A DNA stretch of 63,237 nt, the filler included, from Stramenopiles sp. TOSAG23-6 (lineage: Eukaryota), in the NCBI GenBank assembly GCA_900128565.1. It is 8 parts of 8 records of this genome, joined end to end, with 100 filler letters (N's around TTAATTAATTAA, not from the genome) between each part and the next. Parts side by side here need not be neighbours in the genome. Positions count along the whole stretch, not along the records: positions 23,559 to 35,221 come from LT636248.1; 7 more parts are not named here. One strand, written 5' to 3'. Shown in pieces: positions 14,610 through 45,956 of the stretch (its first letter is position 1; every line of letters begins with the position of its first letter). The notes below the pieces were generated by a model. It was not told the DNA's origin, ran no database searches, and saw only the letters and a program-made list of their open reading frames with translations. The translations under genes were made by a program, and so were the position numbers.

Positions 14610-14666
14610 ATATTAGAGAAAAGCACCAACTCACTTCATTATTATCTATTACTACAATAATATTTT

Positions 14667-21488: not shown

Positions 21489-21772
21489 GTTGAATACACT
21501 ATCAGGCTTTACTTGTATAGAACGATTTGAGAAAATAAGAAGATTTTCTTGGTAATTTTGTAACGGATGACTTCAAATTTTACAAATTACAAATTCGGAG
21601 ATAATGAAAAATATTCAGGTACCAAGACAGGTTTGTTCAGATACGCAAAAAAAAAAAAAAAAAACGTTCATATTGTTTTTTGCCAAATCTGCTCTACGTC
21701 TCTTTGGATTCCGTACGATTCTTTTGTACTTATTACCAAAATGAAAATAATTCAAGTGTTATTATAATTTCT

Positions 21773-23407
21773 TTATTTGACTTTACTCTCCATAGCAATT
21801 TCTTCAGGCTGGACACCAAGTGCTGCATCGCCGTTTATAGAGAGACCACGAGCAACAGAAATATTTTCGCCATTTTGTTGTAAAAATTTAAAATATGAAT
21901 CAGTAATCCTTTTTCGTTCTTTCCGCCGAGTACTTAAATTCCAAGACGTGAGTTGTTGTTGTCGTGCAATTTCATCTTCAGTAAAATTATGCTGTGCCAA
22001 CCATGCCATTGGAGCACACCTAAGAAGAAAACATAACATATCTGTACGCTGTATCGCTTTTGCCGTAGCTCTTTGACGACCTTCTTTTCTATGAAAATTT
22101 GCATACATTTGTAATAATTTGACACCTCGAGGACGCATCAAGGCATCCTTTGTACTGCCTACAAAAGCAGGATGTCTCATTCGATCTAAAAACTCTAAAA
22201 TATCCTTATTTCGTTTATCCTCAACTCGCCGCGCCTCATCCATATTCTTTTGTCTTTCATCATTACAAAGGGTACATCCTAAACCAAATTCAATGCCATT
22301 TGGGGGGTGACGACATCGAAGAGGACAAAGCAGTGGATCATTATGTTGTATCCCAGGACATGCTACATATTCTTCATCATCGTTATCTTTGGCATATGAT
22401 GTGTTTGTATTAAGCCCCGATGATAACTTTTTAACATTTTTACCAGTTTTGTATTTAGCAAGTGTCTTCCATACTCCAGGTTTATGGCAGTTGACACAAA
22501 AATGAGTATTACCCCAACAACAAAATGAAGCGACTGAGCAACAAAATCTACATTTATGTGCAATCCAATCCTTTCCATGTTTTGGGCATTCTTCTACATT
22601 ATCTACAGCACAACTTGGACATAAAAGATCTTTGGCAACATCATCTTCATCTTCTTCGTCTTCATCAGCGGCACCACAACGATAATTTCCACCAAAATAA
22701 GGTCGCTTACACTTATAACATTGATAAAACACAAATTCATGTAACGCAAATTGAAGAGGTTTTTGATAAAAATCACCACCAGGTTTAATCACCGCGGCAT
22801 CTTTATCTAAACCTTCCATTTTGAAACGAAGTAAAGCTCTACGATGAACATCCGCTTCTAATGCAATCATAGGCCCAACAATGTCTTCAACCGACCAATG
22901 ACGAATTTGTTCCTTACACTGTGGACATTTCATAAACTCAAATGACATTCGATGACCAGGATATCCCTTTTCTAATAAATCTCGAACACACGCTGCATGA
23001 AAAAGATGCCCACATTTTAGCTGTATCGTAGGTGCGTTCCCGAGAGCATCCACATAACAAATCGTGCAATATTCTTCACTCATGTTCAAATCACAAGTAA
23101 GGCATGTATTTTGGAAAAATATTTCAAAAAAAATCATTAAGTATACAATTTCGTACTAAAAATAAATTCGAAATTGAAAAAAAAAATAAAAACATACATG
23201 GAGGACACGCTTTTGCAGATGGATCCCAGCCGGGCACGGCACCTTCCCATAAAACTTCTCTCAATTCTATTCCTAATGGTTCATGGTCTGCGGAAGTATT
23301 AAAAAACAAAACGGCAGGAATAATTTCCTCTGAAATTCCATGAAAGAATATACGCTGTCGTTGGCCGTCCACAGAAACGTGAAGTGTACCGCGTCGTTGA
23401 TTGAGAC
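21773..23407 (-). CDS. MYCBP2/Highwire-like RING-Cys-relay E3 ubiquitin ligase, C-terminal part; exons 23407-23198 and 23103-21773
   Basis: RING (CTIC...CGHLFHAAC...CPQC), YQCYKCKRPYFGGNYRC, CPKHG, KCRFCCSVASFCCWGNTHFC, CPLRCRHPPNGIEFGLGCTLC match the MYCBP2 C-terminus. Confidence 0.88.
23104..23197 (-). other. Introner-like GT-AT intron (94 nt, phase 1)
   Basis: CAT|GTATGT...AATACAT|G; gives ACPPCLTC before the RING. Confidence 0.85.
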
Positions 23408-23458
23408 ATGTATTTTGGAAAAATATTTCAAAAAAAAATCGTTAGGTACAAAATTTCG
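23408..23458 (-). other. Introner-like intron, 3' part (ends AATACAT)
   Basis: TACCTAAC...GAAATATTTTTCCAAAATACAT; 5' part in gap. Confidence 0.75.
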
Positions 23459-23561
23459 NNNNNNNNNNNNNNNNNNNNNNNNNNNNNNNNNNNNNNNNNN
23501 NNTTAATTAATTAANNNNNNNNNNNNNNNNNNNNNNNNNNNNNNNNNNNNNNNNNNNNCAC

Positions 23562-23723
23562 GTATGTTTGCATTAGGAACTTCGATTTTTTTTTTTCGTA
23601 CGAAATTTTGTACCTAACGATTTTTCAAAATTTGCATTAGGAATTTCGATTTTTTTTTCTATGAAAATTTTTGTACCTAACGATTTTTCAAAACCAACTT
23701 TTAAATATTTTTTCACAATACAT
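23562..23723 (+). other. Introner-like GT-AT intron with internal ~63-bp tandem duplication
   Basis: GTATGT start, two TACCTAAC cores, TTCACAATACAT end; upstream exon in gap. Confidence 0.75.
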
Positions 23724-24020
23724 ATTGCTGTATCAAAACCAAAAGACGATGAAGTGAAAGAAAAATCAAATTCTGTTCCTGTTATTGAAGATCCGAAAGA
23801 TTCAATAATGAGAAATCTTGAGACTAAGAAAATTAGTGAAAATAACGAAGAGGCAGAAGAAGACGCAGACACTGAAAATAGTATAGACATTGAAAAGATT
23901 GCTATGCCATCTACAGTGTTTGGTGGGTCTCCGGTAAAAACTGCTGAATCTACACAGAAACGAAAAAGAGTTTTTTCAGGAATCCAATCAGAAAATGCAA
24001 AGAAAGGTCGCGTAGAGTGA
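23724..24020 (+). CDS. Last exon of an unknown gene (acidic/basic low-complexity tail)
   Basis: Open frame after the intron, ending KRKRV...KKGRVE. Confidence 0.6.
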   Translation: MAVSKPKDDEVKEKSNSVPVIEDPKDSIMRNLETKKISENNEEAEEDADTENSIDIEKIAMPSTVFGGSPVKTAESTQKRKRVFSGIQSENAKKGRVE

Positions 24021-24519
24021 GCAAAATGAATAGAATCATTAGAATGCCTCTACGTTGTACGAGTAGGTCATCATATATAATGTAGTATGTTTATGATATT
24101 TGTTTAGATCTGAATTTTTTAATAAATACAAATGGAAAAATATATATAATATAGTATATAGTATAGTATAGTATAAATAAGGCAGTTCGGTTTTTCGGTC
24201 AATTTTATAAAAAGTAATATTTTCATTGCAATTTGCAAAGATACTTAAAACCCTACAGTAACCATGATTAGCTAATAATTACGATTATATCATAATGATG
24301 AAATATAATATCATAACTTTCTCAGACAAAAAAAGTTTGAACATTTTCGACCACTCATTTTTTGACAGCCTGACTGAGTCAAAATGAGTCAAAATTCATG
24401 GAAAGTTCTCTGCTCCTATCAAAGAGTCTCTCCGATTGCTCGGTAGCACCAGTATACCAGTAGCTAAATATACCAACTCCGAGAAAGTCTAAGGATTCGT
24501 ACATTAAAAAGACGGAATA

Positions 24520-25440
24520 ATGTATGAACTTTCATACGAAGACATTGTTGATGAATCGCCCCTTACAATAAATGTTGAAACAAATGCAGCTCATTACTCA
24601 AATTTTGATCCAAAAGAAGAGTCTCCAAAACAAGACCAAACAGATGATTGGTTCGTAAAAGCCTTTATCCTTTTGAATACACTTTCTGTGTACTTTTGTT
24701 GCCAAATGATGAAATATTTGCCATGGATTCACCGACATGAACAAGTAACATCTATAGCGTTATTTTATAATGCTCTCCATTCGGTACTAGTGGTTCTCGG
24801 AATATACTTTATCAATCCAGTGCATGTATTTCCTCAAAACAGCAAAACTGTGTACAGCATAGTAAGCCATATCAGTGCATTTTCGTTTGCTTCCATGGGT
24901 AGTATATCTTGGCTTTCAGATTTTACGCTTACACCTGGCTTTTGGTCAAGATTGCCTGTCAACGGAAAAATCTGCATTGCTGCAGGTTTTATTATCATAA
25001 CTGCTGTTGTTGTTTTTCAAGGATATCGTGCATATACGCAGAAGACATTTTATCAGCAATTTGCTCCGTTGTCTCTGATTATTCTACTTTGGTTTAGTCT
25101 TTGGGTTTTGTTGGAAGAAAATCAAATAAAACATTCACTTCACTTACATCATGCTCTATTTGGTGGTATATTCTCCTGTTGGTTCACTGACTTTTTGGAT
25201 ATGTGGGAAGTAACTTTGAATAGCGTATTTATCGGAATTTGTATAGAAGGTATCAACTTCTATGCTATTGAAGATTTTAACCTCTTTGTTGTCTCAAATG
25301 ACCCAGTACATTGGAGTGGTGTTGTTATTACTTGGGCAGTTTTAGTAGTACTACTTGCTTTCACAGTTGTAGGTCAATCTGAGTGTTTGCTTGCTATCAA
25401 GGAGAAATATCTGATATTTTTTAAAATGTCTGATAAATAA
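24520..25440 (+). CDS. Multi-pass membrane protein of unknown function
   Basis: 306-aa ORF with many hydrophobic segments and an HLHH motif. Confidence 0.8.
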   Translation: MYELSYEDIVDESPLTINVETNAAHYSNFDPKEESPKQDQTDDWFVKAFILLNTLSVYFCCQMMKYLPWIHRHEQVTSIALFYNALHSVLVVLGIYFINPVHVFPQNSKTVYSIVSHISAFSFASMGSISWLSDFTLTPGFWSRLPVNGKICIAAGFIIITAVVVFQGYRAYTQKTFYQQFAPLSLIILLWFSLWVLLEENQIKHSLHLHHALFGGIFSCWFTDFLDMWEVTLNSVFIGICIEGINFYAIEDFNLFVVSNDPVHWSGVVITWAVLVVLLAFTVVGQSECLLAIKEKYLIFFKMSDK

Positions 25441-25763
25441 TGTGTGATAGTGCCACTATAGGGGTTTTTGCTGCTATATATAAGCGCAAATTTCATACAT
25501 TTTTGAAATTGTTTAAGAATATGAATTTTCGTGAAGATCAATGTAAAATATACTATATTATACTGTTACATAATCAATAAAGTCCATTAATCAAAATAAT
25601 TCGTACAAACTTTTCCTAAAAAACACGAAAAGTTCGTCTTCTCCTCAAAACATTTTTTTTGAAGGAAGGACATCATACGTAACTAGGCTATCGTGTAACC
25701 GTAAGTGTCACATGAAGGTATTTATAAGGGTATTTGCCTAGTTTTGTGTCAGCACCTACTAGT

Positions 25764-28700
25764 ATGGCAGATGATGTCGCGGATAGCATGCTAGATGCTT
25801 TCACGGCACCAGATGCCTCTGATATCTTAGTAGATACTGATACTGAAGGACTGCGTTCGCCTGCAGCAACCACCGATTCATTAGAAAGAAGCTCAGATAG
25901 TGCTAGCAGTGATGATATCACAGCAATAGATAGTAAAATAGAAACAGAAAGTAATAGACAGATTGATAGGCTTCGCCCGGGTGTAGGAGTTTCAGTAAGG
26001 GTTAATCAAGATGTTCCTAACGCCAAAAGCTACGGGTTCTATGGTCTACAATTTAGTGACGCCTTCGATGGTGAAGGTCTAAAAATATCAAAAATTGGAC
26101 CTGGTCCAATTTTAGATTGTAAGAAAGTAGAGGTTGGCATGTGTATTGTAGCAGTGCACCCAAGTCGGCCTTCTAAAATGTTTGATAGTTCCATTTCAAA
26201 TTATATGATTATGGCAAAGTATAAAGTTGCTAAAACATTCCTAAAACAAACTGCACACTTATCAAAAGAAATAATATTTGCATTTGTCACTCCTCAGATT
26301 CGGGAGAGTATTAAACATGCATGTGCGACGAGGCTACAGCGTACATTTAGAGGTTATTCTGTCAGACTTAATTACTTTCAGGGAAATTTTGATGAGGTCA
26401 CTGCAAGACACAAAGATGAAGAAACTATAGAAGAAGTTACAAAAGTGCAATTGAAGAGGTCCCTATTTGACGCTGAAATACCGACAAAAATAAGAGTTGA
26501 AGTTGTTGCTGCTAGAAACACTATAAAAGAGGTTGCACTCATTGGTGGTACCAGACGATGTCATGGCTGTGAATTTGCACCGGGAGTGTACGAAACAGGC
26601 TTAGTAGTAGATGGTTTTCATGAGCTTGATAATGGTGATCTTGGGCCAATCCAGATGAATGGAGGTGTATTTGTTGGTATGTCTCTTGTAGCAATTGAAA
26701 GATCAAAAGATAATCATAGTTTCCAACTCCCCATAATTAGTAAATATCCTGCGCTTATTGAGTCAGATCGTCTAATAAACTTCTTGCAAAACACCAGTCA
26801 TGAAAAGAAAGTGCTCGTTTTTGGTATGCTATCTAGTAAAGCAAGACAAAAAATGCAAGAATATTGTATTAAGAAATTACAGAGGCAATTCCGCAGATGG
26901 TATAAGAATATGACATATGCAGAACGAATAAAGAGACTCAAGGCTGCAATTAAAAAATATGAACAAATAGAAACCAAATACAAGTTAAAACTGAAGGCAT
27001 TGTCAAAATATTTAAATGATATTGAAGCAAAAGAGGAAACTTCGAAGTTGAGTGAGAAGAAAAAGTATGTGAAATTTTTTAGAAAAAGACTGGAAAAGAC
27101 TCTACTAATGCTCAGGAGAAATCCTCCGACGCTAGTTTCACGAAAAAGTAAAAGCAAAAGCAAAACTTTGCCAAAAACAATAGCCCCAAAGAAAAAGCAG
27201 ATACATTCTCCAATAAAAACTAAAGAAAGAAAAGTTACCCCAAAGCAAATGAAGTCTATCTCAAGACTTAAAGATATACCTGAAGAAACAAAAATTAAGC
27301 CAATGAAAATTAAGTCTACCTCAAAGCTTGAAGATATACCTGAAGAAAGAAAAGTTAAGCGAAAGAAAATTAAGCCTATCGCTAAATTTAAAGATATACC
27401 TGAAGAAGCAAAAACATTGCCAAAACACATAAACTCTGTGCCCAAACTTGAAGATATACCGGAAGAAACATTATTTGAAAAATTTGTGCCTGGTGAAAAA
27501 AGACATAAAACCCCAGAAGAAGCCGTAGAACAAAAATATGTCGTAGAGTTACACCAGAAACAATTCATAGATGTAGAAAACCATTTTGAAAATGAAACTG
27601 TAAATATACTTGATCAAAAGATTCCAGAAAATAGATCTGAAGCTGATGCGTTGAGATCTCCACGCTGGACTGACTGGGAAATGAAATATGATGAAACACT
27701 TGGAAAGAATTATTGGGTAAATTTATATACGGCTGAGTTTTCGTGGGGATCAAAACATCCATTCGAAACAGCAAATGGGCAACGATATAGCACATTTCGA
27801 CAAAGTTCACTTCGTGGACAAGCCAATACCAATAGTGCATGTACGTTCGCATGATAAATTTCAACTTTATTTATTTTTTCGTACTAAATTTTGTACCTAA
27901 CGTTTTTTTTGTGTGACATGTTTTTTCACAGTACATTTAGTGGAGATAATGGAATTGGGGCAACAGACTCAAATAATCTTTATTTTAATGATAACTTGGA
28001 AAAAACGTCTAAGGGCAGTAGAAATTCTAAAGCAGTAACGCTACATGATCGACTCTACAGCGAGCCTACGGTTAGTATGTTTAGACATCAACAGGGACAT
28101 CGTAACCATCCAGATTTTCTTCATGCGACTTCAAACAGAAAACGAAAAAAATCCAAGTCGCCAGAAAATAGGAAACAAAAAGCAGGGAGATTTAATGTAA
28201 AGAAAGATACAAATATTTCGAGCATTCTTGGGGCATTGAATACTCTTAGTATTGATATTAATAATATTGGATTACATAGATACCCGCCCAGTGCACTGAC
28301 TCACAAAACACATGTTGATAGAGATACTACATACTCAAATAAAGAGAAAGTAGAAAAAATAATATGGAATGAATTTCCTGAAATTCTTCACTTTCTGAAA
28401 ACCCAGCTTGGAAGAAAAAATATATCCATCATGCAGCTATTTAATTTAAGCGACAGCAATAAGGATAATCATCTTACTTGCGATGAATTTATCAAAGGTT
28501 TATTGATTACAGGTATTCGGCCTTTGCCAAAGGATGCTCAACTTCAAGATATGTTTGCATCGTTTGATCATGAAGGAAGAGGAAAAATATCGTTTAGTGA
28601 TTTAGAAAAGGGAATGCGTCAGAGTCTTGGGATACATATTCCGTATCCTATACCTACATTGCATCCAAAAAAGAAATTGCATCCAAAAAAGAACCCAGTA

Positions 28701-30806
28701 AAAATACAAAGCACTATTATTCGTGTCTCTGAAGCAGAACGACTTAGTTTGGCAGGCTATACTGAAAGTAAAAACATTAATAATGAATGGATTCGGAAGA
28801 CTCCTTCCATTAGACATAATAAAGAATCTAGATCACTTCCTCAAGTACGTGGACCAAAAAGTAGAAAATCGGGAAATTATACTCACCCCAGAAAGCAAAA
28901 GAACATTGAGGTTTCAAAGGTATTAAATGAAGATCGAGTTAAGAAAATGCACAAGATCTCACGAGAGAAAATTTACGCTGAATTACAATCCACCCAAGAT
29001 CGTTTAAGAAAACAACTACAACTTCGTCAAGATGAATTTAGTAGGCAAAAAGAAATCACTGGAAAGAATGATACATTTGATGCACGAAAGATAAACAGAA
29101 AGCTTAAAGCTTTGCAGAAGCGACTCCATTCTCGTCAAACAGAATTAGCAGCAGCAGAAAATAAATTAGCCGAGGTAGGTCGTCTTAATACAGCATTAGA
29201 GGTAAGTGCTGTGGCAGCTGGAGAAATTAAGTTTTTGAATTCTATAACGACTACCCCAAAAAAGTCATTATTGGAAGCTGAAGCTTTGCAAGATGTTGTA
29301 AGTGCTGATGATATGACCGCATCTGGGAGACTTCAAAAGAGTGATAGACGTACAATTGTTTTAGGTGATCTATACAATGAGTGTAAAGCCTTACTCGTCG
29401 ATAATACCGCTGCTCGTAATACTTACAACCGCGTTCAAATACTATTTGAGCATGCAGAAATGAATGATATTCATTTCAAAGAAGCATCGGCTGTCCTTCA
29501 AAGCGAGTTGAAACAATTAAAAATGGAATTTGAATCGTCTCGAAAACGCAGAGATAAAGCACAATATAGATGCCGCGAAGCTCATGATAAAAACACCCAA
29601 ACAAATCGCGAATGCGCAAACATGGGAAAAATTTTACAAAAACGTAAAAAAGACTTTACAAATAATGCTGCAGAATTGTTAATAGAAGACAAACCAAAAT
29701 CTTTGCCTGTTGGTACAAAAGTTGGCAAATGGTTAATACTGAACGACGAGGAAGGCAACGTATATTACTATGATCAAAACAAAAATATAGCACAATGGGA
29801 TTGTCCAGTTGAAGTCAACGACTATGCAAATACAATGAGTAATCAATCACGAAAAAAAGGTACATTGAAAAGTCTTACCAAAAGGAAAGGTGAGTTGCTT
29901 CAACGTAGGAAAAATACAAGAAAACTTCATGGACGTAGAGACAAACGATTTTTACAAAATACCTCATTTGGGCGCACTAAGGTCAGCGCAAGACCAACTT
30001 CATTATTAGAAAGGGAAGTAAATGTTCTTCAAATGCGAATTAAACAAACCAAAAAGATAAGTACCCAGGATGCGCAAGGGCATTGTCGAGCACTTAAAGA
30101 TATTGATCGGACATCGCTTAAAATAGAAAAAGAGTGTAAAAATATAGTCGCAAATATACAGAAATTGGACATTACTCTACAAGTCAACAAAAAAACGTCC
30201 GAGAGAATTCAAAAAGTCCTTCGAGGGTTAGACTGCGAAGAGAAGACTGACAGCGATGGGAAAATAGACATTGTAGTTGATTCGAAACAAACGATTCCAG
30301 CAAAAGGAGCGACGCTTGATTATACACAACTGTCTCGTATGTTGAGGAAAGAAATGCTTGGTTCGAAAGTTCGCGCAGAAAATTTCAATGTAACAACGAA
30401 AGTAGAAACAACTCCAAAGATTGGACCTGGTGGCAAATCATATTTTATGGATGTTAACGAATTAATTATTTACGATGAAAGCGCCAAAGAAAAAGGACTT
30501 TGGGATAAAAATAATAAATCTGTAATGCTTTTCGATTCCTCAGATATGGCAGAAATACAAAAATCTATCCAAGAAACTTCAGAAAAACCTATTGCAGTTG
30601 AGAAGGATGAGAAGTTCCCAATTAATTCTACGCTTCTTCTATTGAATGTTTGGCCAGGATTGGTGCAAAATGATGAAAATGTGAGTGCTCTTGTTTTAGG
30701 TTATTATCATGGAAACGTAGTTCTTTTGATAAAATCAAAACAACTTTCTTGGGTACAAGCTTTTGGATTAAATAACATACCCGTGATTGAAAATGATACA
30801 GACTAA
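25764..30806 (+). CDS. Large multidomain protein (IQ motifs, WW domains, EF-hands, coiled coil); exons 25764-27840 and 27937-30806, ~1648 aa
   Basis: IQ-like ATRLQRTFRGY and IKKLQRQFRRW; WW-like WEMKYD...YWVN...SW and WLILND...YYYD...QWDCP; EF-hand DSNKDNHLTCDEF and DHEGRGKISFSDL; two ORFs joined by GT-AT intron. Confidence 0.8.
27841..27936 (+). other. Introner-like GT-AT intron (96 nt, phase 1, contains in-frame TGA)
   Basis: CAT|GTACGT...TTCACAGTACAT; flanking CAG and TAG are out of frame. Confidence 0.85.
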
Positions 30807-30911
30807 TTTAGGTGAAGGGTTTACTAGAAAAAAATATATAGAAAACCATATTCAAAAGAGTTTAATAAACAAATATTTAATTTAAAAACATTTTTTTTCA
30901 CAATATTTCTA

Positions 30912-33908
30912 TCAACAATTTGGTTTATACGAAGCAACAACAGTCTCATTTGCGTCCAATTCATGGTGTGCTGTAGACCAGTCAACGGCAGATGCCCAAG
31001 AAGATGCTTGATCTGTTTTACACCACTCTCGCAAATCATTGACTTCAATAATAATTTCTCTTTCTCTTCTTGGACAAACTAAAAGATTTTTTTCATTTTC
31101 TACTGAGGCACAATACAATTCATTATTTCCTGATGATAGTCTTGACACGACTGATATACCAGGCGCTTGGTGCAATAGTTTTATTAAACTTCCAAAAGTA
31201 GATCGAGCTCCAGTTTTATTCCAGCTTATATAATTGCCTAATTTTGAAACACAAAATCCATACACTCCCTTAAAATTACCCTTATGATGTAAATGTTGTC
31301 GTTGTACTATTTGATTTCGAAGAAAATAAAATACCTCATTTTCATTACCATTTTTCACGATTGTTTCCATTTGTTCATGTACAGAGTTGCATACTGCATA
31401 GTTTGGATCCCCCAACTTAGAGCAAGGTTGAAATTTTGATTCAGAATATTTCATTGGAAGAAATCTTTGTAGAGCATAGTTTCCAACTTTACTTACAATG
31501 AACCGAAGTTGAGTCACATTTGTTGGGTAATAATTTATTGGTCCCACAAAATGTTCTCTGAACTGAAGTAATATATCTGCAGTCTTTGTAAGACAAATTC
31601 CTCGAGAACCTCCGATAAGATTAATAACAATCGCACCTTCATTGAGAACATTGTCCGCCTCAAACACTTCAGACTCACGATTTAGCCAAGGCGTTATTGA
31701 GCCATTTTCTGTTTCTGTTATAAAACGTCTACCATCATCAAGACGTAATACATTAATTCCTATGAGATTTTTTGGTGTTCTACTATTCATTTCTTCAATA
31801 TTCTCTTTACATCCTTTTATATTCTTGTTTTGCTTTATGATTTTTGTACTACTATTACTATGCTCATCACAAAGGACCTCGCGATAAAGATCTAACGCCT
31901 TCGCATCGCCAAAATCCAACCATTGATCTTTGAGCGTCAGATGATCAAAAACTATTTTGAGATGTCGCATCGAAACCAAATTGTTCTTTATTAATGACTT
32001 CACTAAAGTACATGCAGCAGAAACTGACTGAGATGTATCACGAATACACCAACTATTTAATAAGACAGACGCCAACCTTGATTGATACTGCGGATCATTA
32101 CATCTTGCTGAATGCATAAAATATTTACTTTTGAATTTAGTATGTTTTTTCAAATAATCAAAGACTTCTGCTTCTCCCAATGTATCATTTTCTATTCGAA
32201 GTCGAGTCAATAAAGTTTCAAATGTATTATGTATTTTAGAAAAATATTTCAAAAAAAAAANGTTNGGNAACAACATTTCGTACGAAAAAAAACTCGATTT
32301 TTTTGTAAAAAAAAAAAATAAAACATACATGATTTGGAATCACTTTTGCATCTTCCATGGTTTCTAAAACAACCATTTTACTGAACGAGGAATCGTGTGA
32401 AAATTTGACTATATTATTGAAATAAGACACATCATTACAAAGAAAGGTAGACAAATTGTCTAGGAGCATCCACAATGCTGCAATGGATTCATCAGAGCCT
32501 TCTGTAATCCAATTTATTACTTTTTCGTTTCGCATGTATTTTGGAAAAATATTTCAAAAAAAAAATTGAAAATTTGTTAGGTACAAAATTTACTATAAAA
32601 AAAAAAAATCGATTTTTTTGTTTAAAAAAAAAAATAAAACTTACATATTTTGTATTTCATTCGGTGTATAGGACATACAAGATATATCCGATATATCCGA
32701 TATATCAGAAACATCAGGAACATCTGATATACGTAGTACTTCTGGATGTGCTTGTTGTTTTATCCCATACAATCTATCGGAAATAGGAGTACTATAAGAA
32801 TCAAAATCATCGGATTCATCATCTTGTTTAAAGCTTTCCTCTAATGCTCTCTCATGCCATGACATTGCTCCTTTATTATCCCCTTCAATTTGCTTCATAA
32901 GACCAATAATGTTACACGTCTTTTCACCTACATGATTTGACTCTGTAGTGGGAATGTATTTTGGAAAAATATTTGAAAAAATTTCTAAAAAATTTGTTAG
33001 GTACAAATTTTTTTACCAAAAAAAAAAATAAATTCGATTTTTTTGTTAAAAAAAAATAAAACATACATATCTTTAATGAGTTGTATCATATGGTCACTAC
33101 TATGACAAGCCCTCAGAACTTCAGAGACCAACTCATCATCTACAAAACCATCAAAACCAGCAGACACTAAATGATCAAAAATATACCACGATGCTTCTTG
33201 GGCATGAAAATTAGGTAATTTGAGTAAACTTCGAATCAAGCTTCGCCTTTTACAAGCTATTTCTTGAGTTGTCAGTGTCATGATTGACTCGAAATATTTT
33301 TGATACTGTGGATAAGTGTCATTCAATTCATTTGCCTCACTTTCTCGGCCTTCCACTCGGAGTCGTAAAAGAAGTATTTGATACGTCTTGTGATCTGGAA
33401 AGATTGAAGTTTTCTCGAGAGTTGATATAAAGTCTCGCATCTCAAGCGTTGTGTAACAAGTATTTAAAATGAAGTGAAAATCATCAGGTGAAACATATGC
33501 ACGTTTAGCATGTATTCTATCTTGAATCATTGCTTTTGCTGAGTCAATTTCGTCTCTGTTTACATGACTGTTAATTTGACCCCGTATTAAACGTTCACTC
33601 TGTTTCACTCGAGGTTTTACATCTGAACGTTTCTCTTTAACTCGAGATTCTACACGGGAAAGTTTCGCTTTAACTAGAAGTTGCGAAGGGGAAGGTTTCT
33701 CTTTAACTCGAGATTGTACACGGGAAAGTTTCGCTTTAACTAGAAGTTGCGAAGGGGAAGGTTTCGCTTTAACTCGAGGATGCAATTTCACACGAGAGTT
33801 AGTTCCGTAAGCCCGATAGAATGTTCCAACACCACAATGGATACGTGTACCAGTAAACACTGAAATGCCATTCCACTGAAATCTTTGGGGTAGTCTAATT
33901 ATATTCAT
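30912..33908 (-). CDS. PPR-like helical-repeat protein, possibly organelle-targeted; exons 33908-33067, 32953-32645, 32533-32329, 32228-30912
   Basis: Internal repeat IFPDHKTYQILLLRLRVE / VIPNHNTFETLLTRLRIE; all three GT-AT introns restore frame; start codon uncertain. Confidence 0.7.
32229..32328 (-). other. Introner-like GT-AT intron (100 nt, phase 0)
   Basis: CAT|GTATGT...AAAATACAT; spliced product aligns gaplessly with the protein's other repeat. Confidence 0.88.
32534..32644 (-). other. Introner-like GT-AT intron (111 nt, phase 2)
   Basis: AT|GTAAGT...CCAAAATACAT|G; canonical U2-type donor. Confidence 0.85.
32954..33066 (-). other. Introner-like GT-AT intron (113 nt, phase 2)
   Basis: AT|GTATGT...CCAAAATACAT; internal TTTTAG out of frame. 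Confidence 0.85.
33630..33778 (-). repeat. 66-bp coding tandem repeat (~2.2 copies)
   Basis: RVKxKPSPSQLLVKAKLSRVxS repeated. Confidence 0.85.
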
Positions 33909-34289
33909 TCTACAATAGAATTCATCGTAAATTTCAAATTTGTGTAATTCTAGTAAAAGTACAACTACAATGTTTGCTAACTTACAAAAAAATGGTGTTA
34001 CTGCTGCTGACTTCTTCTTTTTTGGTACAAAATATCGTACGTAATATACGACGTCTTTCAAAAATTTAAATTTCATTAAATTTTTTGTATATTTTCGATT
34101 TCGCATTTATTTCGATTTTTCGCCTTTCATTTTTGACCGGAACAACAACAAAAACGAATAATTAAAATTAGGTATCGACAATATCATCCGACAACAACAT
34201 TCTGACTATCACCTGTCTTTACAATTTCGCGTTTGACGTACATGCTATCACACACATTCTATTGAGAATAGTTTTCTCCACCTAGTTAA

Positions 34290-35109
34290 ATGATACATAG
34301 TAAGTGTGCACCAACTTGTATGACTATACAATCTGTGACAAACAATGAGTCTGTACGCGTGAGCGAAGAAAGTAGTAAAGGCAACACTAGTAAAGAGAAA
34401 CTTCGAAATTCTGTATGCAACAAAACTTCGCCTCCCGCTAATTCCATTGGACGTATTGATGGACGGCAGCTTTTATCCTGTAGCTTCTCCGAAGAAGTCT
34501 CACATTCATTAGATACTATTCAAACAGTGGATGTTAAAAATAAAACTGAGGGGATAAATGAAAGTTCAGTGAGAAAGCTGGCGTTATCTTCTGATTGGAC
34601 CAATACTTGTGACAGAAACAACACCTTAAAATTGAAATCTCTTTCAGATATCATTGTTAATGATAAAGATGATAAAGATGATTTGTTTAGAAAGTATAAT
34701 TCTGGTACAATTCAAAAATCTTCTGTTGCCTCTATTACTGAAAAATTAGGCATTCTAAATGACAAATCTCTAAATTCCTTGAAAAAAACTTCACCTACTT
34801 CAAAAACATACTGTGGGAAAGACAGTGTAGCAAAATGTGATGTACCGTCAACTGATAGTAGGGATAATATGAGAGAATTTCACGAATCGACTACAGAGGA
34901 TTTCTGCACAGAGTCAAGTGAGAGTGAATTATCGACCATCAGCAGTACAAGCAGTATTAAAAAGTCTGTACGAAAATTGTTACCTAAAGGCAAAGGAATT
35001 CAAATCTTACGAGAAGGACGTGAGTTGACAAAGTTAAAGGCTGCAGTTCGATTTGAAGTAGAAAAGTTTCTAGCCCTTGCCCCTATTTCGTTAATTTCGA
35101 TGAAATTGT
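34290..35109 (+). CDS. First exon of an unknown Ser/Thr/Lys-rich protein
   Basis: Long ORF running into a family intron at the contig end. Confidence 0.65.
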
Positions 35110-35221
35110 GTATGTTTTATTTTTTTTTTTAACAAAAAAATCGAATTTATTTTTTTTTTTTTAGAAAAAATTTTTGTACCTAACAAATTTTTTAGATTTT
35201 TTTTTCAAATATTTTTCAAAA
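35110..35221 (+). other. Introner-like intron, truncated by contig end
   Basis: GTATGTTTTAT donor, TTGTACCTAAC, AAATATTTTTC. Confidence 0.8.
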
Positions 35222-35321
35222 NNNNNNNNNNNNNNNNNNNNNNNNNNNNNNNNNNNNNNNNNNNNTTAATTAATTAANNNNNNNNNNNNNNNNNNNNNNN
35301 NNNNNNNNNNNNNNNNNNNNN

Positions 35322-38300
35322 TTCATCAAGCATTTCTGTNTCATTGGGAGCAACTTGGGACACAGAAGCAGGTGTTTCAGATTCCGAAACTGTAATTTCT
35401 GGAACAGATGTGTTGAGCGAATTGTTATTACGAAGAAGAAGTATGTTTTGGTGTAATTCCAAATTGAGATTTTCGGGTAACAATTTGTTATGGTTTGGTG
35501 TGGACTTGACCCCATGATTGAGAAGCTCCTCAACCAATTTCTTACTGTGGACAATGTAAGCAAAATGCAAGGCAGTATTTCCATCATAAGTCGTTTTTTT
35601 AGCATCCGCTCCAGCCTGCAATAAATACAGAGCGCATGCAATGTGAGAATTGCATACAGCGTGAATTAATGGTGTGTAACCTTGGTTGTCGCATTCATTG
35701 ATATCGCATCCTGAACGAACAAGTTCCTGAATTGCAACGACATTTCCACTTTGTGCGGCGGCTGAAATAGGTTTTGTATATACTGGAAAAGTCCCAGAGT
35801 TATACTTGGATACAAACGAAGATATTGAAGACAACCTTTTTTGCATTTTATTTTGATCGATATTTGCTTTGTGCATATCGCTGCCATGTGGAGTCGCTCG
35901 AACTCTAGTAGAATCACGTGTTTCATTGCCATGGGGCATGTTTGCTTTAACAATAACAATTTTAACATCTTGGCTAGGTTTTACGTTTGGTTTCTTCTTT
36001 TGTTTCAGCAAGATAAGACCATANCCAGTATTTGGCGGTAATCTTGCACCTGTCTTCTTTCCGCCTTGTGGAACAGTCACTCCATTTGCTGATGGGTGTT
36101 GAAACAGATGTTGGCATAAATTCAACTCAGCTTCAACTTCATGCGAAGTTTTATTCTGCCTCGTATGTGACACAAAAGAAGTATCACCACCAACATGCAT
36201 TTTTTGCATTGAAAGTCGATCGAATGCAGACGGCTCAAAAAGAACAACGCTATTTGAATGTTCTTTTTGAGATGAACTTGTCATTTCTATTTCAGTATTC
36301 GTGTTTTGTTTTGGGGTTGCTTTTTTCATTGCTACTTGTTTAGCTATTTTCTCGTCAATATCAGGAAATTTATCTGGCATAACACCTTCACTATTTTTTG
36401 AATTACGNGGATGAGGCTTTTTTTTCGTTCCAGNCCGGTGCTTCATAGATGTAGATATAACCCCAACTTCAACATTGTCATCAACTGGATGAGGCATTAT
36501 CACTTCAATTGTGGATTTTCTTCTCTGTTTTGGAGGCTGGAATAAAATACTTAAACTATCCATGTATTTTTCATCCATTTTGCCCAATACCAATAAAGTA
36601 CTTTCCCACATTTCACTTTCTCTTTGTTTGATTTCTTGCATTCTCCTCTTTGCTTTTAGGAACGACCGACTACTGTTTTGATCGAGTAAATGATCATTCA
36701 TTATTTTTTCTAATTGCTCTATCAATTCTTGTGTAGCATACGCATCAGTATCAATATGATTCTTCATTGCTTTAAACGCTGAAATTATTTTATTCAATTC
36801 TTGTTCGACATTATCAATCACATTAGTAGTCTGAGTAGATTGTGTAGAAGTAGTATCNGAAGAAGTAGATACTACGCCAACCGGTCGCTTTAGTAATGTT
36901 TTTGTGCCGATACTAAGAATTTCCATATTCCATGCAGCGATATCGTTTAAAACTTGTANTTGTGACCCAATAACTTCATCGTTANCATCATCCGACAAAT
37001 CTCGACCGACCAGCCTCTCTAATTTTCCAGGAATTTGCATTGAAGCGTTGATGACACAGTTATTTGCATTGACGCTTTCACATGCATCATTAATAGATTT
37101 CACAAGGTCACTGATATCGTTAACGCATAACTCAGTATCTTCGCCACACTCAAACAATATAACGTCATCGGGGCTTTTACCTTGAGATCCTTCCACAAAA
37201 TTAGCACAAGCAGTATGTATAGCATCAATTATATTCTGTGCTGACGAAAGTTTCACATTTGCTGATGATATCCAAATGTCAATCAATCGATGGCGAAGTT
37301 CTTCCACCTCTGATATTGTCTCAATAGGCTCACCATTTTCGTCATCTTTGACGGGGACATAACCACTGATTCGAACATTGTACGATCCACCATCAGTTCC
37401 CTGATTTTGGATAGCCATTTGCATACACGATTTTCGATATTCATTTATGGATTCTGCTGAAGTTTTTGCACTCGACATGATAATACTTATTGGAACTCCG
37501 TGTGATTTCATGCTTGCCTCCGCTTCTCGTTTAGCTGATTCGGCCGCCTCGGCAACTGCGGTAACTAGTTCAGCTTTTGCACTTTCAAGAGATTTGTTCA
37601 AATTAATTATATCAGTTCGCAAATCTTCACATATAGCTTCCACAGCTGCAACTTTTTTTGCGGCATCATTTTCTGCTTGTAACTTTGCCGCCGCAATTTC
37701 TTTCTCTGCTTCAATTGCACGTTCTTCGGCTTTTGCTGCCCGGCCTTGTTCAAATTCAACTAATTTTGTGAGTTTTGTGATTTCATTTTCACTTCGGTCA
37801 AGTTTTGCCTGTGTTTCCCGAAGGTTTGCTTCAACTTCTGCTTTCCCAGAACCTGCGCTTCGAGCTTTCTCCTTCAAAGCTGATATTTCAGAATCAAATT
37901 TTAAAGCCTTTTCCTCTAGCTCATTGTATTTTTCTTGTGTATCGGAAAGTTGTTTTTTAAGTTCCATTATATTTTGCTTATCTGATGCAGCTGCTGCTCC
38001 ACTGTTTTGAGCTTTTTTGATCTCATTCTCCAAATCTTCCCGTAATTTTTGGACTGTTTCATTTAATGAAATTACAACAACATCTTTCTTTTCAAGTTCC
38101 AAAGTAAACTCTTGTTCAATAAGCTTACGTTGAGTCGCAATCTTTTCCTTGAGACCTGAATTTTTCCCCATATCTGCAATATTTTTCTTTAGGCTTAAAA
38201 TTAATTCCTTTGAACTCTTTGCTTCTAGCTGTGATTCTTTCAACGCAAGCTCAGTTTTCTGTAGCGTTTCTTGGCATTCTCTTAGCTCCACCTTTGCCAG

Positions 38301-41300
38301 ATGACTTTCCCTCTCAATATCGCGTTGTTCTTGTACCATAGATCTCATATTCCCCGAGTACTTAGCATTTTCCATACTTGCTTTATCGAAAGCTTTTTGA
38401 ACAACGCGCAATGCGTCTTCGGCAACTTGAACCTTTTCTGCTGAATCCGCTTTGATCGTCTTGTTTAGAGCTTTAAGTTCATCTACTCTTACTTCCATTG
38501 TACCATAGTCATCAGCCATACGCTCAAAGTCATTAATTTGTTCCTGTGCACTCTCTATCTCCCGCTTTAACTGGCGTTCACGTGCTACCATACCAACGGC
38601 ATCAATTGCTCTAAGGGGTTCTAATTCTGACGCCAAGCGAGCATTTTTGAAGTGTAATAATGCAACTTTGCCTTTCAAATGTCGATTCTGTTGATACAAC
38701 TCCTTATTTTTAATCATTAGATTCTTTTCTTTTCCGACAGAAGTTTCTATTTGTCTACTTGTTACTATTTTATTTGATTTCATTAAAACCATAGATGTCA
38801 TTGCATTTGAATTGCCATTAACCTCTTTCAGAGCATCTCTGACGTCTTCAAACTGTGTCTCCAAGTCTTTAACTTCTTCACGCAGCATGATTATAAGTTC
38901 CTCCAAACTCCTATTTTTCTTTACGAGTTTGTTTCTTTGGATACCCCACTGTTCTTGAGTTTCGAGATTTATTTCATCACTTTTATCGATGGTAGCTGCC
39001 CTGAGAAGTTTTGTTTTAATTTCGCTGAGTTCCTTTTGCAATTGTTTTTCATTTTCTTGTAACTTTTCTTTTCGTTTACTAAGGACATCAACATTTTTTT
39101 CCATTTTCTGATTATCCACTTCGATACTTTGGGGTTCGAGATTNAATGATGCACCTGGAGAGTGTTTTAAAACAAATGGTGGTACATTCAGCCCTCCACG
39201 AATCGTNCCAATATCATGCCCTGTGTTAGATAAAAACTGATGAAATTGATGTTCTAGTAAACGTTTTTCGGCTCTTGCTATATTTGCCTTTGTTCGCTCA
39301 AATTCAAGTAATCTAGAAACTGGGGATGCTGCAGCGAAAGATAATTTATCGTTATTTATATCAGCATATGTGGTGCTCGCAATTTTACGAATCTTTTGGA
39401 ACTCTCTCACNTCATTCATTTCAGATTGAATCGTAGTAAATTGGTCAAATATATTTTGTCTATTTCGAACAAGCTCATCCCGCATCATGGTGATTTCTTC
39501 TGTTTCGTCTTTGACTTCGTCAAATGACTCCTTTAAAGCACTTACGACTTGTTCATGTGAATTTTTCGCAGCTATCGCAGCAGCTTTCAGTTCTTCCACT
39601 TTTTGAAATAGAACTTCGTTTTCATCCAAAAGTGTATCAATTGAGCTTCTCGTTTCCTTGTTTTTTTTCTCTTGCGAGGACGTTAGAGTAGATGTATCCA
39701 AGCTTGTACCAACACTAAGCGAATTACAATCTGAAGTACTTATCAATACATCGCGTAACCTTCGATTCTCAGCTCTAAGGGTACTTGAAGTCATAACTTC
39801 ATTCGTTGCTAGTTGAGCAAGACGCCTCCTTCTCGCGTCATATTCTCCATCATCTGCTCCGTCGATAGATCCTCGAATTACATCTACTTTCAATTTTTCT
39901 ACCTCCTCAGAAAGATTTATATTATCATGCACTAAAGACATGAATGCATGAACCCCAAGGGAGCTGTTTATCGAATTTTCATTACTTGTTTCCATTTGTG
40001 ATACATTAGGTGGTTCTGTATCATTATCATTATTATTTTCATCTTTATTCTCAACTTCATCCAAATTTGATATAGTTGATGCAATAGCTTCTTCATTGGA
40101 TTTATTTACTTGTTTACAGTCAAGCTTCATTTGATTTTCGATGCTGGTCATCATTTTTTCTATCTTTACATCTAAAAATTCTCGTCTAATTTGATCATCT
40201 TGATCTTTATATTTCTCTAATGACAATTTTGCCGTGTTCAATTGAATTTGTAAATCGTCTATTTCTGCTTGCAGTTTGAGTTTTATATCAGTTGATTCAA
40301 TAATTTCATTCTCATTTACTTCAATTTCCTCTTTTGACAATGAATCAAACTCTTGAGGTTTTACAAGTATACCTTGATCATCACTAACCATATTACTATC
40401 ATCTACATTACTTTCTTCTCCTCGGTCTTTTGTATCTTTTTTCATTTGGAAATTCTCTGCGGTTTCTTGGCGTTTTCGAGTCTTATCTTCTGTACGTTGC
40501 CGCATTTTCCCATTTCGCTTTCTTTTTGCTTCCCCTACTTTTTGGGTTTGGACCTTTCCTTCCTTCAAATTTGTCTTCAGTTTAGCTTTTGCACGACTTT
40601 TTCTTTCAAGATCCATTTCTTTCTCCATTTCACGTTGGTTCAATTCAGAAGCATCATCATAATCAGAATTTGACGACCAAATTCCACCTGTTTCTCCAGT
40701 ATCTTCATCACTTTGAACGTCTTTTTTTTCTTTCTTTACTGTCTTCTTTCTATGACTTTTAGGCCGTGATTTAATTGCATTNCGAGTACGCTTATGTTTC
40801 CCAGGAATACCTAATTTTGTGTGTTCTTCTTCAGTGTACATTTCTTCTTTTAAACTTTCTTTAAGTTTTGTCAATGTTGTATCTTGTTCTGCTATTCTGA
40901 TTTGCAATGCCTCGGCTTCAGCTGTTTTTTTCTCTAATGTTTTTGTCACAATGGCGAGTTTGTCTGCCGTAGGAAGAAGCCCACCAATTTTATTTTCAAG
41001 TTTATGAATTTGGTTATTTGCATCTTCAAGATCCTTCTCAAGTTCTTTTGATTCAAGTAAATTATTTCGCAATTCATCATTCTCCCATTTCGCGAAGGAT
41101 CCGACATCGTTTATCGTACTGGAGCCTTCAATAACTTTGTTCAATTCTTCGCTTATATACACTTCTAAATTTTTATTTTTCATTTCTAAATTACGCACAA
41201 GTTTTGCTGATTTGGTTTCCTTTAACTCCATTTCTAGTTTTAGTGCTTTTACTTCTTTTGAATTATCATTTGTGACAGTGTTAGTTGTCGGAAACCCGGT

Positions 41301-42008
41301 AGCATTATTTGCTATGCCAGTCTCCAAAATTGTATTTTTCTGCTTCATTTCTCTAGCTTTAGTCCGCGCGTTTTTCAGTTTCTTTTCCAGANTATTACAC
41401 TTTTCTCTAGATGATGCTAGACTTGCTTTCATTGTTTCTATTTGTATCTTTATTTTGTTGTAGTCTTCATCTTGGTCCTCATCACCGCTACCTTGTTTTT
41501 TTGATATGGCAAATTTCTGTAGTATATCATTTTGCTCTAGGATACTCTTATTTTCATCTTTAAGTGCTAAAAGCTGATCATTCAGCTTACTAATTTCCAT
41601 ATGCAAATCATCAGTATCTGATCTTTTTAAGAGAACATCAGGTTGTACATGTTTTGAGGAGGCTTTAGCAGCAGTCTGAGGCCTTCTTTTGATGTATTCC
41701 TGACCAGCCTTTGTGGTTTTAACATATGCCAGAACTCTCTCTATCTCTCTCTTTGATGGAATATCACTTTTTAGGCTCTTCTGTTTTTTTGACGCAGTTG
41801 GTGTCACTGGTGAAGACATCTTTTCTTCATATGAATGCAACTTATCACGAGAATCCCACGACGTTGCGTCTTCTGTGAGCTTGCTCCCTGATGGGGCATG
41901 ATTCTGGATAAAGTTGTCTAGAGACTCTCTCTCACGAAGTGTCGCAGCTGTCAGCTTTGAGAAGAGCTCATCTGGATCTATTTCATCGTCGGAGTCGTAT
42001 TCGCTCAT
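35322..42008 (-). CDS. Large coiled-coil protein with C-terminal ankyrin repeats, copy 2 (3' truncated)
   Basis: >2200-aa ORF; ankyrin motifs near the C-terminus. Confidence 0.85.
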
Positions 42009-42237
42009 TCTAGAACGTTTTAACTGGAAATTGTAATCTTTGGTTGATACTTGATTGGTTAAGACTTAGTCACTTTTTCCATCGGATCAAATCTGTAACG
42101 TCTGCTGTCGAAGTCAAAATCTCCGATTTTTGAGACCTGTGTCCGCAGCTGCGGGTCACTCAATCTCTGGCGTGGTACCATCCAGTGGTTCTTGTGTGGT
42201 AGTATCATTGGTTTTTAAGATCTTAAAAAGTACTCAG

Positions 42238-42645
42238 ATGTACGGCATCGAGATGATGCCACACGAAGCAAGCCTCGACATTTCAGATAAAGCAAACAAC
42301 AATCTACACCTGGAACAAAGAAATGACAAGGAGAATCAAAGTAGTGAAAACAAACTCAATAACCAATTTAGGCAACCTCCAGATTACAAGAAGTTTTTTT
42401 TGGAAGGTTTGAAAGTTTTTCAAGAGGAAAGAAAACAAATCTTATTGATGATAAAAAAACTTAGAAAATTGGGGTTTACATCTCGGGATAGTCAACGTGC
42501 TNTCAGAGTATCAGGTGGTAACTATGCACGAGCCAAGGAATTGTTACTGGCAAGACTTCGACTAAATGGAAGTTGTTCAACCCCACCGTTACCACGGCGA
42601 AAACCATTAAGCAGTGCAGCAATNGAACGAANTCCATTNGGCTAA
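42238..42645 (+). CDS. Small UBA-like domain protein, copy 2
   Basis: Identical to 6935-7342. Confidence 0.6.
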   Translation: MYGIEMMPHEASLDISDKANNNLHLEQRNDKENQSSENKLNNQFRQPPDYKKFFLEGLKVFQEERKQILLMIKKLRKLGFTSRDSQRAXRVSGGNYARAKELLLARLRLNGSCSTPPLPRRKPLSSAAXERXPXG

Positions 42646-42792
42646 GCAGCACTAACCCAACAACGCGGACANANAANGTATCAAGCANAGTGTTATAGTA
42701 AAATTCGTTTATTATAAATCAACAGTTGAATGAAAAAAGTATACACAAGAGTAAACAAAAAAAGAAATGATACTACCCTGTAATAAATGCTG

Positions 42793-44157: not shown

Positions 44158-44319
44158 AACAGTGAAACACCGTTTTGAATTTGCTACTATTTTTTTAAAA
44201 TTTATTTTTCAAGTTTATACCATACGTAGGCCAGGCCAGGGTTCCTTTCATATTCCAAAATAAAGTGCTGGTATAATTTATGACACAGTATGGCGTAATT
44301 AAACTTATTATTGTTTTAT

Positions 44320-45270: not shown

Positions 45271-45401
45271 TATTTTCTTTTGGGTAAATTATATAAGGTT
45301 AAGTTCTAGTTAAGATGTGACTAAAATATAGGGTACCTGAAGTAGTCAGTCGTAGGCAGAGTCGAGTTTCATGCAAGCGCGCAAGGGTAGTATTAGATTT
45401 A

Positions 45402-45956
45402 GGTTCAGTCCACGCAGCTTTTTTTGACGACACGACGAGCGACACGACACGGTTTTTAACCCTAACCCTCGTGTCGAATAGCTTAAGTAGCGACCTGTTT
45501 GTACCAAAATAATCGTGTCGTGTCGTCGTGTTTTTCAAAAAAGATTCTACAAAAACACATCGACACGACACGATTACATCGACACGACATGATTACTCAG
45601 CGCAAGTAAAACACGAAAGTGCAACGTTTTCACTCATAAAATGCATTCTAGGAAGTTTTCGATGCTGAATCTTTTTTTATAGGCTGCGTACACGATGTAC
45701 ACAACTATTCTCTAATATAACCATTTGTTTATTTTCACTATAATGCATTGTAAAATAAGAACTTTTATTTTTTCTCAGGTACACAGACCACAAATTGCTA
45801 TTAAATTTTTCCTTATTTCGTGTGTCATGTCGAGTCGTGTTGTGTATTTTTTTTTTTGTTCTGCATGGACACTTTTTTTTTTCTGAAAAGCATGATCTAT
45901 AATTTTCGTGTCGTGTCGCTTGTCGTGTCGCCAAAAAAAGCTGCGTGGACTGGACC
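45402..45956. mobile_element. PIF/Harbinger-type MITE, copy 2 (same locus)
   Basis: Identical to 10099-10653 with the same flanks. Confidence 0.9.

Follow-up and report, generated by a model that had tools for sequence, protein, structure and literature searches.

The DNA considered here, referred to as the window, is the whole stretch of 63,237 nucleotides (nt) from Stramenopiles sp. TOSAG23-6 (assembly GCA_900128565.1), and the subject of this study is a T-rich element of about 100 nt, one family, that is repeated inside genes across it, with three copies in a single gene at 32229-33066. The window consists of eight contigs (1-11680, 11781-23458, 23559-35221, 35322-46983, 47084-58738, 58839-60238, 60339-61738 and 61839-63237) joined by linkers of the form N44-TTAATTAATTAA-N44 (11681-11780, 23459-23558, 35222-35321, 46984-47083, 58739-58838, 60239-60338 and 61739-61838), and its G+C content is about 35%. 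The fourth contig (35322-46983) is a near-exact repeat of the first (1-11680), and once this duplicate is discounted the unique sequence amounts to about 51 kb. The top protein match of an actin-like gene in the window is a EukProt record with a name beginning GSMAST32, which is identical to the window translation over the covered parts, and this identity points to the host being a MAST-3-like uncultured marine stramenopile. Single N letters cluster in or beside copies of the element (32261, 32265, 32268, 48622-48646, 60120-60156 and 62133-62143) and may mark positions where merged reads or cells disagree within a repeat.

There are 19 complete copies, 18 in the window and one on an independent metagenomic contig (L001, described below); those in the window comprise 15 that run from GT to AT, one that runs from GT to AG and two that start with ATAC. 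The gene that holds introns I, J and K lies on the minus strand and is represented by open reading frame (ORF) pieces at 32997-34106 and 32641-33012, by fragments of the 32236-33553 type and by a piece at 30912-32339. The complete copies in the window are as follows, with a slash at each border between exon and intron and with positions counted from the first (positive) or the last (negative) base of the intron.

Intron C, 12041-12147, minus strand: 107 nt; exon end AA, intron end AATAT; an AG 5 nt before the frame-consistent end; a 9-nt tandem duplication at the donor (12139-12156)
Intron D, 20463-20552, minus strand: 90 nt; exon end AA; read-through stays in frame and open
Intron E, 23104-23197, minus strand: CCAT/GTATGT...ATACAT/GCC
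Intron G, 23562-23723, plus strand: 162 nt at a contig start; exon end AC; an internal 63-nt duplication (23585-23710)
Intron H, 27841-27936, plus strand: GCAT/GTACGT...AGTACAT/TTA; a C4:G-6 pair; an AG 5 nt before the end that would be bypassed
Intron I, 32229-32328, minus strand: 100 nt; TCAT/GTATGT...ATACAT/AAT; three single N; phase 0 on both sides; 75 and 314 open codons on either side
Intron J, 32534-32644, minus strand: 111 nt; ATAT/GTAAGT...ATACAT/GCG; upstream phase 2 and downstream phase 1, which agree
Intron K, 32954-33066, minus strand: 113 nt; ATAT/GTATGT...ATACAT/TCC
Copy M, 48526-48617, plus strand: the sole GT-AG member of the family; GAG/GTTTGT...ATACAG/GTC; an N in the downstream exon
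Intron Y, 54813-54957, minus strand: 145 nt, a diverged member; box ATACCTAAC; exon end CT
Intron N, 55182-55281, minus strand: in the actin-like gene; ACAT/GTACGT...ATACAT/GCG; no AG nearby in any equivalent register
Intron O, 57956-58053, plus strand: start ATACGT, end ATATAT (A1 with T-3)
Intron P, 58444-58551, plus strand: start ATACGT, end ATATAT; a 6-nt repeat, ATACGT, shared with the next exon
Intron S, 60061-60168, minus strand: GAAT/GTATGT...ATACAT/GGA
Intron TU, 62089-62259, minus strand: 171 nt; two units joined through a shared TACAT; TTAT/GTACAT...AGTATAT/GTC
Intron V, 62403-62512, minus strand: exon end GT
Intron W, 62665-62763, minus strand: CCAT/GTATCT...ATACAT/GTA; a 6-nt repeat, CATGTA
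Intron X, 62848-63036, minus strand: 189 nt, two units; exon end GT, intron end TGCAT

A repeated family of elements within genes

A profile of the family, as proposed in a preliminary description of this DNA, was built by iteration with nhmmer and run over the window only, where it gave 31 hit rows. Once tandem and double hits, second-strand hits on the palindromic core and hits in the duplicate contig had been merged, there remained 22 sense elements, one antisense fragment (R) and one weak, ambiguous match at 34015-34047. A further diverged sense copy (Y), without an nhmmer match, was recognised by eye, which brings the sense total to 23 copies spread over at least 12 genes in the unique sequence; orientation relative to the host gene is thus 23 sense, one antisense and one ambiguous. 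On the sense strand the copies have the layout (C)AT/GTATGTTTTATTT ... CGTACGAAATTTYGTACCTAAC ... TTTTTC(A or C)AAATACAT/(G), with a consensus donor GTATGT, a branch-site-like box TACCTAAC that is located 33-47 nt before the intron end in most copies, and a T-rich tract. Pairwise identity is 53-91% across the family and 85-87% among copies I, J and K, so that the earlier claim of one repeat family in unrelated genes stands, and its wording that the copies are near-identical does not.

Contigs from public sequencing runs were compared with the N-free stretch 52200-58738 (6.5 kb, with 5 copies of the element). The DNA run X3 is a different sample, with scattered single-letter differences from the window. 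A total of 3,915 X3 contigs were placed on this stretch, of which 8 long pieces are given as unique cover, and the summed depth over element bins was 7,000-22,000 against about 7 over unique DNA, a measure that is not a copy number. From the excess in depth, the copies in this organism or its close relatives would number in the thousands. Six copies in the window are interrupted by contig ends, indicating that the assembly breaks within this repeat. A core-motif scan of metagenomes yielded one locus, L001, an independent contig that reads ACAT/GTATGT...ATACAT/GG. Two scans of viral contigs for family patterns gave 0 and 0 matches, prokaryote genome contigs gave 0 matches in one pattern scan, and the single match of a second prokaryote scan, in a Treponema metagenome-assembled genome, was without a family hit and was dropped as due to chance. 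A search of Rfam returned 0 families.

Reading frames and the position of the 3' cut

For each complete copy it was asked which upstream and downstream codon phases stay open over long stretches. An unambiguous flanking frame pair was available for 14 copies, and all 14 fit the removal of GT...AT or of a window of the same length shifted within the flanking repeat; four copies were non-decisive, namely W and X (two frame pairs each), M (an N downstream) and G (almost no upstream exon). In the actin-like gene the removal of intron N (55182-55281) produces MDCGSEITKVGMAGT/CEPWITDQTCIGIPR, which is gap-free against the ...GSGMCKAGFAGD/DAPRAVFPSIVGRPK of 11 displayed actins, and this intron cannot be written in any register with a terminal AG. 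Several other copies have an AG between the branch-like box and the end that agrees with the frames: C, H and TU at 5 nt before that end, and C, K and S at 12-13 nt past the box. These AGs were rejected as acceptors for the family introns, as in our own reading they disrupt the frame in C, H and K.

A comparison within the same DNA is provided by one intron that does not belong to the family.

Non-family intron, 56938-57036, minus strand: TG/GTATGT...TTACTAAC (TACTAAC box)...ATTATAG/G; canonical GT-AG

Here the AG is the only site that keeps the frame, and an ACAT 21 nt upstream of it does not keep it; the organism therefore also appears to have ordinary GT-AG introns. The donor GTATGT is common to this intron and the family, which places the 5' cut of the family at the G of GTATGT and, in consequence, the 3' cut after AT. 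An AT-AC register was rejected on the grounds that the donor is that of the canonical intron and that copies without the flanking repeat do not start with AT; in those copies the same register of cleavage is presumed. Taking frames, homology and signals together, we infer that the family copies are removed by splicing and cut after ...ATAC-AT.

Several further comparisons bear on individual junctions. Homology cannot fix the register of intron Y, whose junction falls within an insert of the actin-like protein that is specific to the lineage. The exon between J and K and that between O and P gave no matches when compared with longer proteins, and no gene model or homologue was found to bridge those junctions. 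A comparison of the repeat units of a giant coiled-coil gene around intron D had an ambiguous outcome, and a scan for more introns by T-richness was overwhelmed by signal from the antisense strand of coding sequence rich in A.

Flanking repeats and the target site

The preliminary description had counted an exon ending in AT upstream of 9 of the 15 complete GT-AT copies and an exon ending in AG upstream of the single GT-AG copy (M, 48526-48617), and both counts were reproduced exactly; the two complete copies that start with ATAC (57956-58053 and 58444-58551) were absent from it. An exon end AT is found in 10 of the 19 complete copies, L001 included (background 0.091 over 37,066 exonic positions, p=1.7e-6), an exon end CAT in 6 (background 0.016, p=3.5e-7) and a G at the start of the next exon in 9 (background 0.196, p=0.006). 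The summed length of the direct repeats is 54; for 20,000 random placements in exons the value was 12.8 +/- 4.3 and never above 35. Within the window and L001 the exon end therefore matches the intron end above background, as had been anticipated.

The empty-site profile (A8 C9 A14 T14 / G9 T7 of 19) is the palindrome ACAT/GT, and its counts fall off symmetrically about the A/T step (14/14, 9/9, 8/7), as would be expected if a two-fold symmetric DNA-cutting enzyme had cut with a 2-bp stagger. The same palindrome is also the junction of the element's own ends (ACAT/GTAT). Among the eight copies that lack the repeat, seven keep one of its two letters (expected 0.50, p=0.036), which hints at decay of the repeat by point mutation.

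Inverted termini

The ends GTAT...ATAC-AT reported earlier are real, the inverted terminus spanning 4 bp only, and since GTAT and ATAC are reverse complements the earlier description of the ends on the plus strand holds on the gene strand too. Pairing from +1:-3 to +4:-6 is possible in 19, 19, 17 and 12 of the 19 copies respectively, and the pairs over these first four positions number 67 at this offset as against 3-51 at other offsets. Introns O and P share A1 and T-3; given their 87% identity and their location in one gene, this combination probably represents a single event. In H and TU a C4 is accompanied by G-6, whilst five other C4 copies keep A-6. A terminus of 4 bp with a little covariation looks too weak for the terminal inverted repeat of a transposon, although it would suffice as a hint that the terminus helps to place the 3' cut.

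Origin of the family

The explanation that we consider probable is that a single mobile element of high copy number, an introner, gave rise to these spliceosomal introns in an uncultured MAST-3-like stramenopile, and the assignment of the copies to an introner family is itself well supported. The element would supply the donor GTATGT, the branch-like box and the T-rich tract, and would insert at the DNA level into sites that resemble the palindrome ACAT/GT, presumably with the help of a mobilising enzyme. The exon-end AT (often CAT) and the intron-end AT would be the two copies of the target, the intron would be cut after ...ATAC-AT with AT as acceptor instead of AG, AG dinucleotides between the box and the end would be passed over, and the removal of GT...AT would restore the original coding sequence exactly. 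Sense copies alone would survive in genes, because only these carry the internal splicing signals.

Several observations weigh against this explanation or against parts of it. With regard to splicing, RNA-library contigs (X6 and X7) thinly cover 16 of the 30 bins of 52200-58738, and the listed X6 pieces that extend as far as a family intron, three in number (55240-55421, 57788-57986 and 58296-58498), all read on into its sequence; no clean skip of a family intron was found among the 15 listed of 102 joints from X6, X7 and X10, all 15 of which lie between repeat copies. In the RNA libraries, element depth relative to exon depth is of similar magnitude to the value in DNA, for which carry-over DNA or pre-mRNA could be one explanation among others. 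With no clean skip seen in the RNA contigs, the case for splicing rests on frames, homology and signals; to our knowledge there is no textbook precedent for a G1...U-1 intron. With regard to mobility, there is no clear intergenic copy in the window, no transposase domain in the 24 ORF stretches scanned there, and no allele without the intron among the X3 contigs that reach introns N, O and Y. The inverted terminus is only 4 bp long, and in none of 8 copies are the ends paired in the minimum-energy fold, 6 of the 8 folding no better than shuffles (|z|<2).

The remaining difficulties concern the source of the AT. Eight of the 19 complete copies end in AT behind an exon that ends in AA, AA, AC, CT, CT, CG, GT or GT. 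The presence of the repeat is not tied to identity with the consensus (0.76 vs 0.72, p=0.28), and intron C is among the copies closest to the consensus and has no repeat. The length of the repeat ranges from 0 to 6, the repeat can lie on the right side (ATACGT in P), and it frequently continues into AC or GTA belonging to the element itself; neither the variable length nor this continuation is to be expected of a fixed 2-bp duplication unless a target preference is added. The earlier proposal that the acceptor comes from the target duplication is thus favoured by the enrichment of the repeat, the paired AG ends of copy M and the symmetric target, and is opposed by the eight AT-ending copies without a repeat. 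For copies lacking the repeat it called for later mutation or a different mechanism; the seven of eight that keep one letter hint at mutation, and the missing link to consensus identity and intron C speak against it. Target duplication remains plausible, and is the single most likely source of the AT, its chances being about even.

The main rival to target duplication is an element with an ...ACAT end of its own that integrates under the guidance of homology. According to this explanation the introner is the same and ...ACAT is its fixed 3' end, the repeat arising from homology-guided or site-specific integration or from joint microhomology; a circular form with joined ends ATACAT/GTAT that recombines with a look-alike ACATGT site would be an example. 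It would account for the intron-end AT in 18 of the 19 copies whatever the exon end, for the extension of the repeat into the element's AC (CAT in 6 of 19, ACAT in 2) and GTA (3 nt in W, 6 nt in P) and for its graded length, as well as for the identity of the empty-site consensus with the junction of the element's own ends and for the joining of the TU units through TACAT. However, the AG shared by the exon end and the intron end of copy M would then have to be a coincidence (background AG 0.070), the symmetric 14/14 and 9/9 profile fits a staggered cut equally well, and neither a recombinase gene nor a circular form was seen in the window. We regard the fixed-end explanation, the circular form included, as rather unlikely.

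Of similarly low probability is an element with its own, AG-independent definition of the 3' end, in which a helix between GUAU (+1 to +4) and AUAC (-6 to -3) would dock the 3' end for a cut after A-2 U-1. Such a 4-bp helix would explain why upstream AGs and CATs are ignored, and would likewise explain the copies in which a change of G1 to A accompanies one of C-3 to T and those in which C4 accompanies G-6. If it were real, the conventional spliceosome that handles GT-AG introns would also process thousands of GT-AT introns.

Spread at the RNA level, in which the excised intron reverse-splices and its complementary DNA recombines into the genome, the exon preference then reflecting acceptance by the spliceosome, is improbable. 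The ratio of 23 sense copies to one antisense, the want of a clear intergenic copy and the full set of splicing signals inside the element would all suit it, but there is an in-frame fragment in antisense orientation (R), neither the symmetric palindrome at the target nor its match to the intron's own end is predicted, and selection alone accounts for sense orientation in a gene-dense genome. Sense orientation of the Micromonas introners has reportedly been explained in the same way.

Two explanations are very improbable. If these were old introns at old positions, homogenised by gene conversion, the presence in X3's related population of all three introns that its contigs reach would be natural, but the flanking repeat and the palindromic target preference would be unexpected, 3,915 X3 contigs match the elements, and contigs break inside copies as expected of a young repeat. 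That the elements are not removed from RNA at all, being eliminated from DNA in another life stage or lying in dead genes, would accord with the RNA-library contigs that run from exon into intron at three of three junctions reached and with short, AT-rich elements that have inverted ends and a dinucleotide repeat at their bounds, but the elements stand at full depth in a single-cell-type assembly and in the independent metagenome X3 (on which ground the ciliate-type internal eliminated sequence was also rejected), they carry a donor, a branch-like box and a T tract and are strand-specific, and the frames on both sides are open for hundreds of codons.

Comparison with known introns

Introns of the U12-type AT-AC class have the donor ATATCCTT and a branch box about 10-20 nt from the 3' end. 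The copies that bear the repeat can be written as AT...AC, and their CCTAAC box resembles the U12 branch consensus; however, the start of the family is ATGTATGT and not ATATCCTT, the distance from box to intron end is 33-47 nt, and an initial AT is missing from copies that lack the repeat. With the donor context (AT)GTATGT and this position of the box in most copies, the U12 type was rejected. A hairpin-type non-canonical intron was also rejected, since none of the 8 minimum-energy folds pairs the ends.

The recruitment of splice sites from target duplications has been described in Micromonas and Aureococcus (PMC11282704) and in dinoflagellates (10.1101/2020.10.14.339549). The present family is like the introners of Micromonas pusilla and Aureococcus anophagefferens (PMC11282704) in that short, non-autonomous-looking repeats constitute many introns in unrelated genes of marine picoeukaryotes and are flanked by short direct repeats, one splice site lying inside the element and the other at the repeat. 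Those introners are GT/GC-AG, with duplications of 3 bp (Micromonas) or longer and clearer inverted termini (PMC11282704), whereas here the acceptor is AT, the repeat is centred on the AT in ACATGT and the inverted terminus is 4 bp. The introner-like elements of Polarella and Symbiodinium (10.1101/2020.10.14.339549) likewise have thousands of copies, splice sites recruited from duplications and single-strand classes, and in dinoflagellates unusual splice dinucleotides are tolerated as they would be here. They differ in having a flexible donor (GT/GC/GA), an AG acceptor and loosely constrained duplications of 3-8 nt (10.1101/2020.10.14.339549).

Acceptors other than AG are known from Fritillaria borealis, in which introns derived from miniature inverted-repeat transposable elements have non-AG 3' ends (AC, AT) formed from an exonic trinucleotide, TAC, that is repeated at the intron end (PMC11282704; PMC13326754). 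This is a likeness to the present family, and the attribution of their removal to the major spliceosome (PMC11282704; PMC13326754) was counted as another. Fritillaria differs in its non-GT donors (AG-AC, AG-AT), in having about 95% of its introns non-canonical and in its duplicated U2AF genes (PMC11282704; PMC13326754), whereas the present family has a perfect GTATGT as donor and occurs alongside at least one GT-AG intron. The introners of Amoebophrya have direct and inverted repeats and free-floating splice dinucleotides (PMC7789003). The introns of Amoebophrya (PMC7789003) and of euglenids (PMC11282704) have direct repeats of 3-5 nt that overlap the borders, inverted-repeat ends and a register that is ambiguous within the repeat; the present family, with its flanking repeat, its short inverted terminus and its ambiguous register, is comparable. 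The inverted repeats of Amoebophrya and euglenids are 8-20 nt long and fold into hairpins, and their end dinucleotides are very variable (PMC7789003; PMC11282704), whereas in the present family only 4 bp can pair, no predicted fold brings the two ends together, and the end sequences are uniform.

Large introner surveys have regarded 3' ends other than AG or AC as suspect, at least in passages of PMC12130899. A literature search that did not cover supplements found no report of repeated or non-AG introns in MAST-3; in PMC5778133 intron and splice are mentioned only in methods passages, and 10.64898/2026.04.17.719054 gives intronic fractions only. What sets the present case apart is that an AT acceptor is combined with a donor of textbook form and a branch box near the consensus, and that GT-AG introns seem to be present in this stramenopile as well.

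Partial copies and neighbouring features

The incomplete members of the family in the window are the following.

Copy A, 11571-11680, plus strand: cut by a contig end; donor GTATGTATGT after exon ...AATAT; counterpart in the duplicate contig at 46874-46983
Copy B, 11781-11863, minus strand: cut by a contig end; exon end GCAT
Copy F, 23408-23458, minus strand: 3' half only; ...ATACAT/GTC
Copy L, 35110-35221, plus strand: cut by a contig end; exon end GT
Copy Q, 58682-58738, plus strand: cut by a contig end; donor GTATGTATGT after exon ...GTAG
Fragment R, 59811-59881, plus strand: the only antisense copy; in frame inside an open minus-strand ORF of 466 codons (...FFDKSLGTTFRTKSFDDF...)

Copies A (11571-11578) and Q (58682-58689) have a doubled GTAT, and fragment R looks like an exonised insertion.

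Intron D lies in an open frame of 2,301 codons (ORF 14670-21572, minus strand) that contains at least five tandem units of 666 nt (222 residues) at 16798-20128. The product is K/E-rich, has no Pfam match and is probably a coiled coil, and at the position of intron D the unit concerned falls about 22 residues short of its paralogues. Upstream of the actin-like gene, an ORF with ankyrin and EF-hand matches (55282-56260, minus strand) runs stop-free and in frame into its first exon, so that there is either a fusion protein or a pair of genes without a stop between them in that frame. Telomere-like arrays of the TTAGGG type, with 2-3 units, are present at 10735-10752, 14149-14160, 58248-58265, 58985-58996, 46038-46055 (in the duplicate contig) and at about 2270-2330 of L001. 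Matches to TTAGGGTTAGGG with at most one mismatch number 8 against 0.08 expected, some of them near gene ends and one pair inside the exon between O and P.

Consequences for gene models and for splicing

The public model of the actin-like gene (protein P0001; window 53676-54812, minus strand) starts at an internal methionine downstream of both family introns, and it also drops the in-frame segments 54342-54380 and 53949-54083, which have GT-AG-like borders. Annotation built on GT-AG rules seems to miss the family introns, and, given the late start of this model, truncation is probable in the gene sets of these ecologically dominant protists wherever introns of this kind are present. The known cases in which the AG rule is broken are the appendicularians, Amoebophrya and the euglenids, and if splicing is confirmed a further lineage, that of a heterotrophic stramenopile, would have genes filled by mobile-element introns that break it. 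With a donor and a branch-like box of textbook form, only the last base of the intron differing and at least one normal GT-AG intron nearby, the family would offer a simple natural test of how the site for the second step of splicing is chosen.

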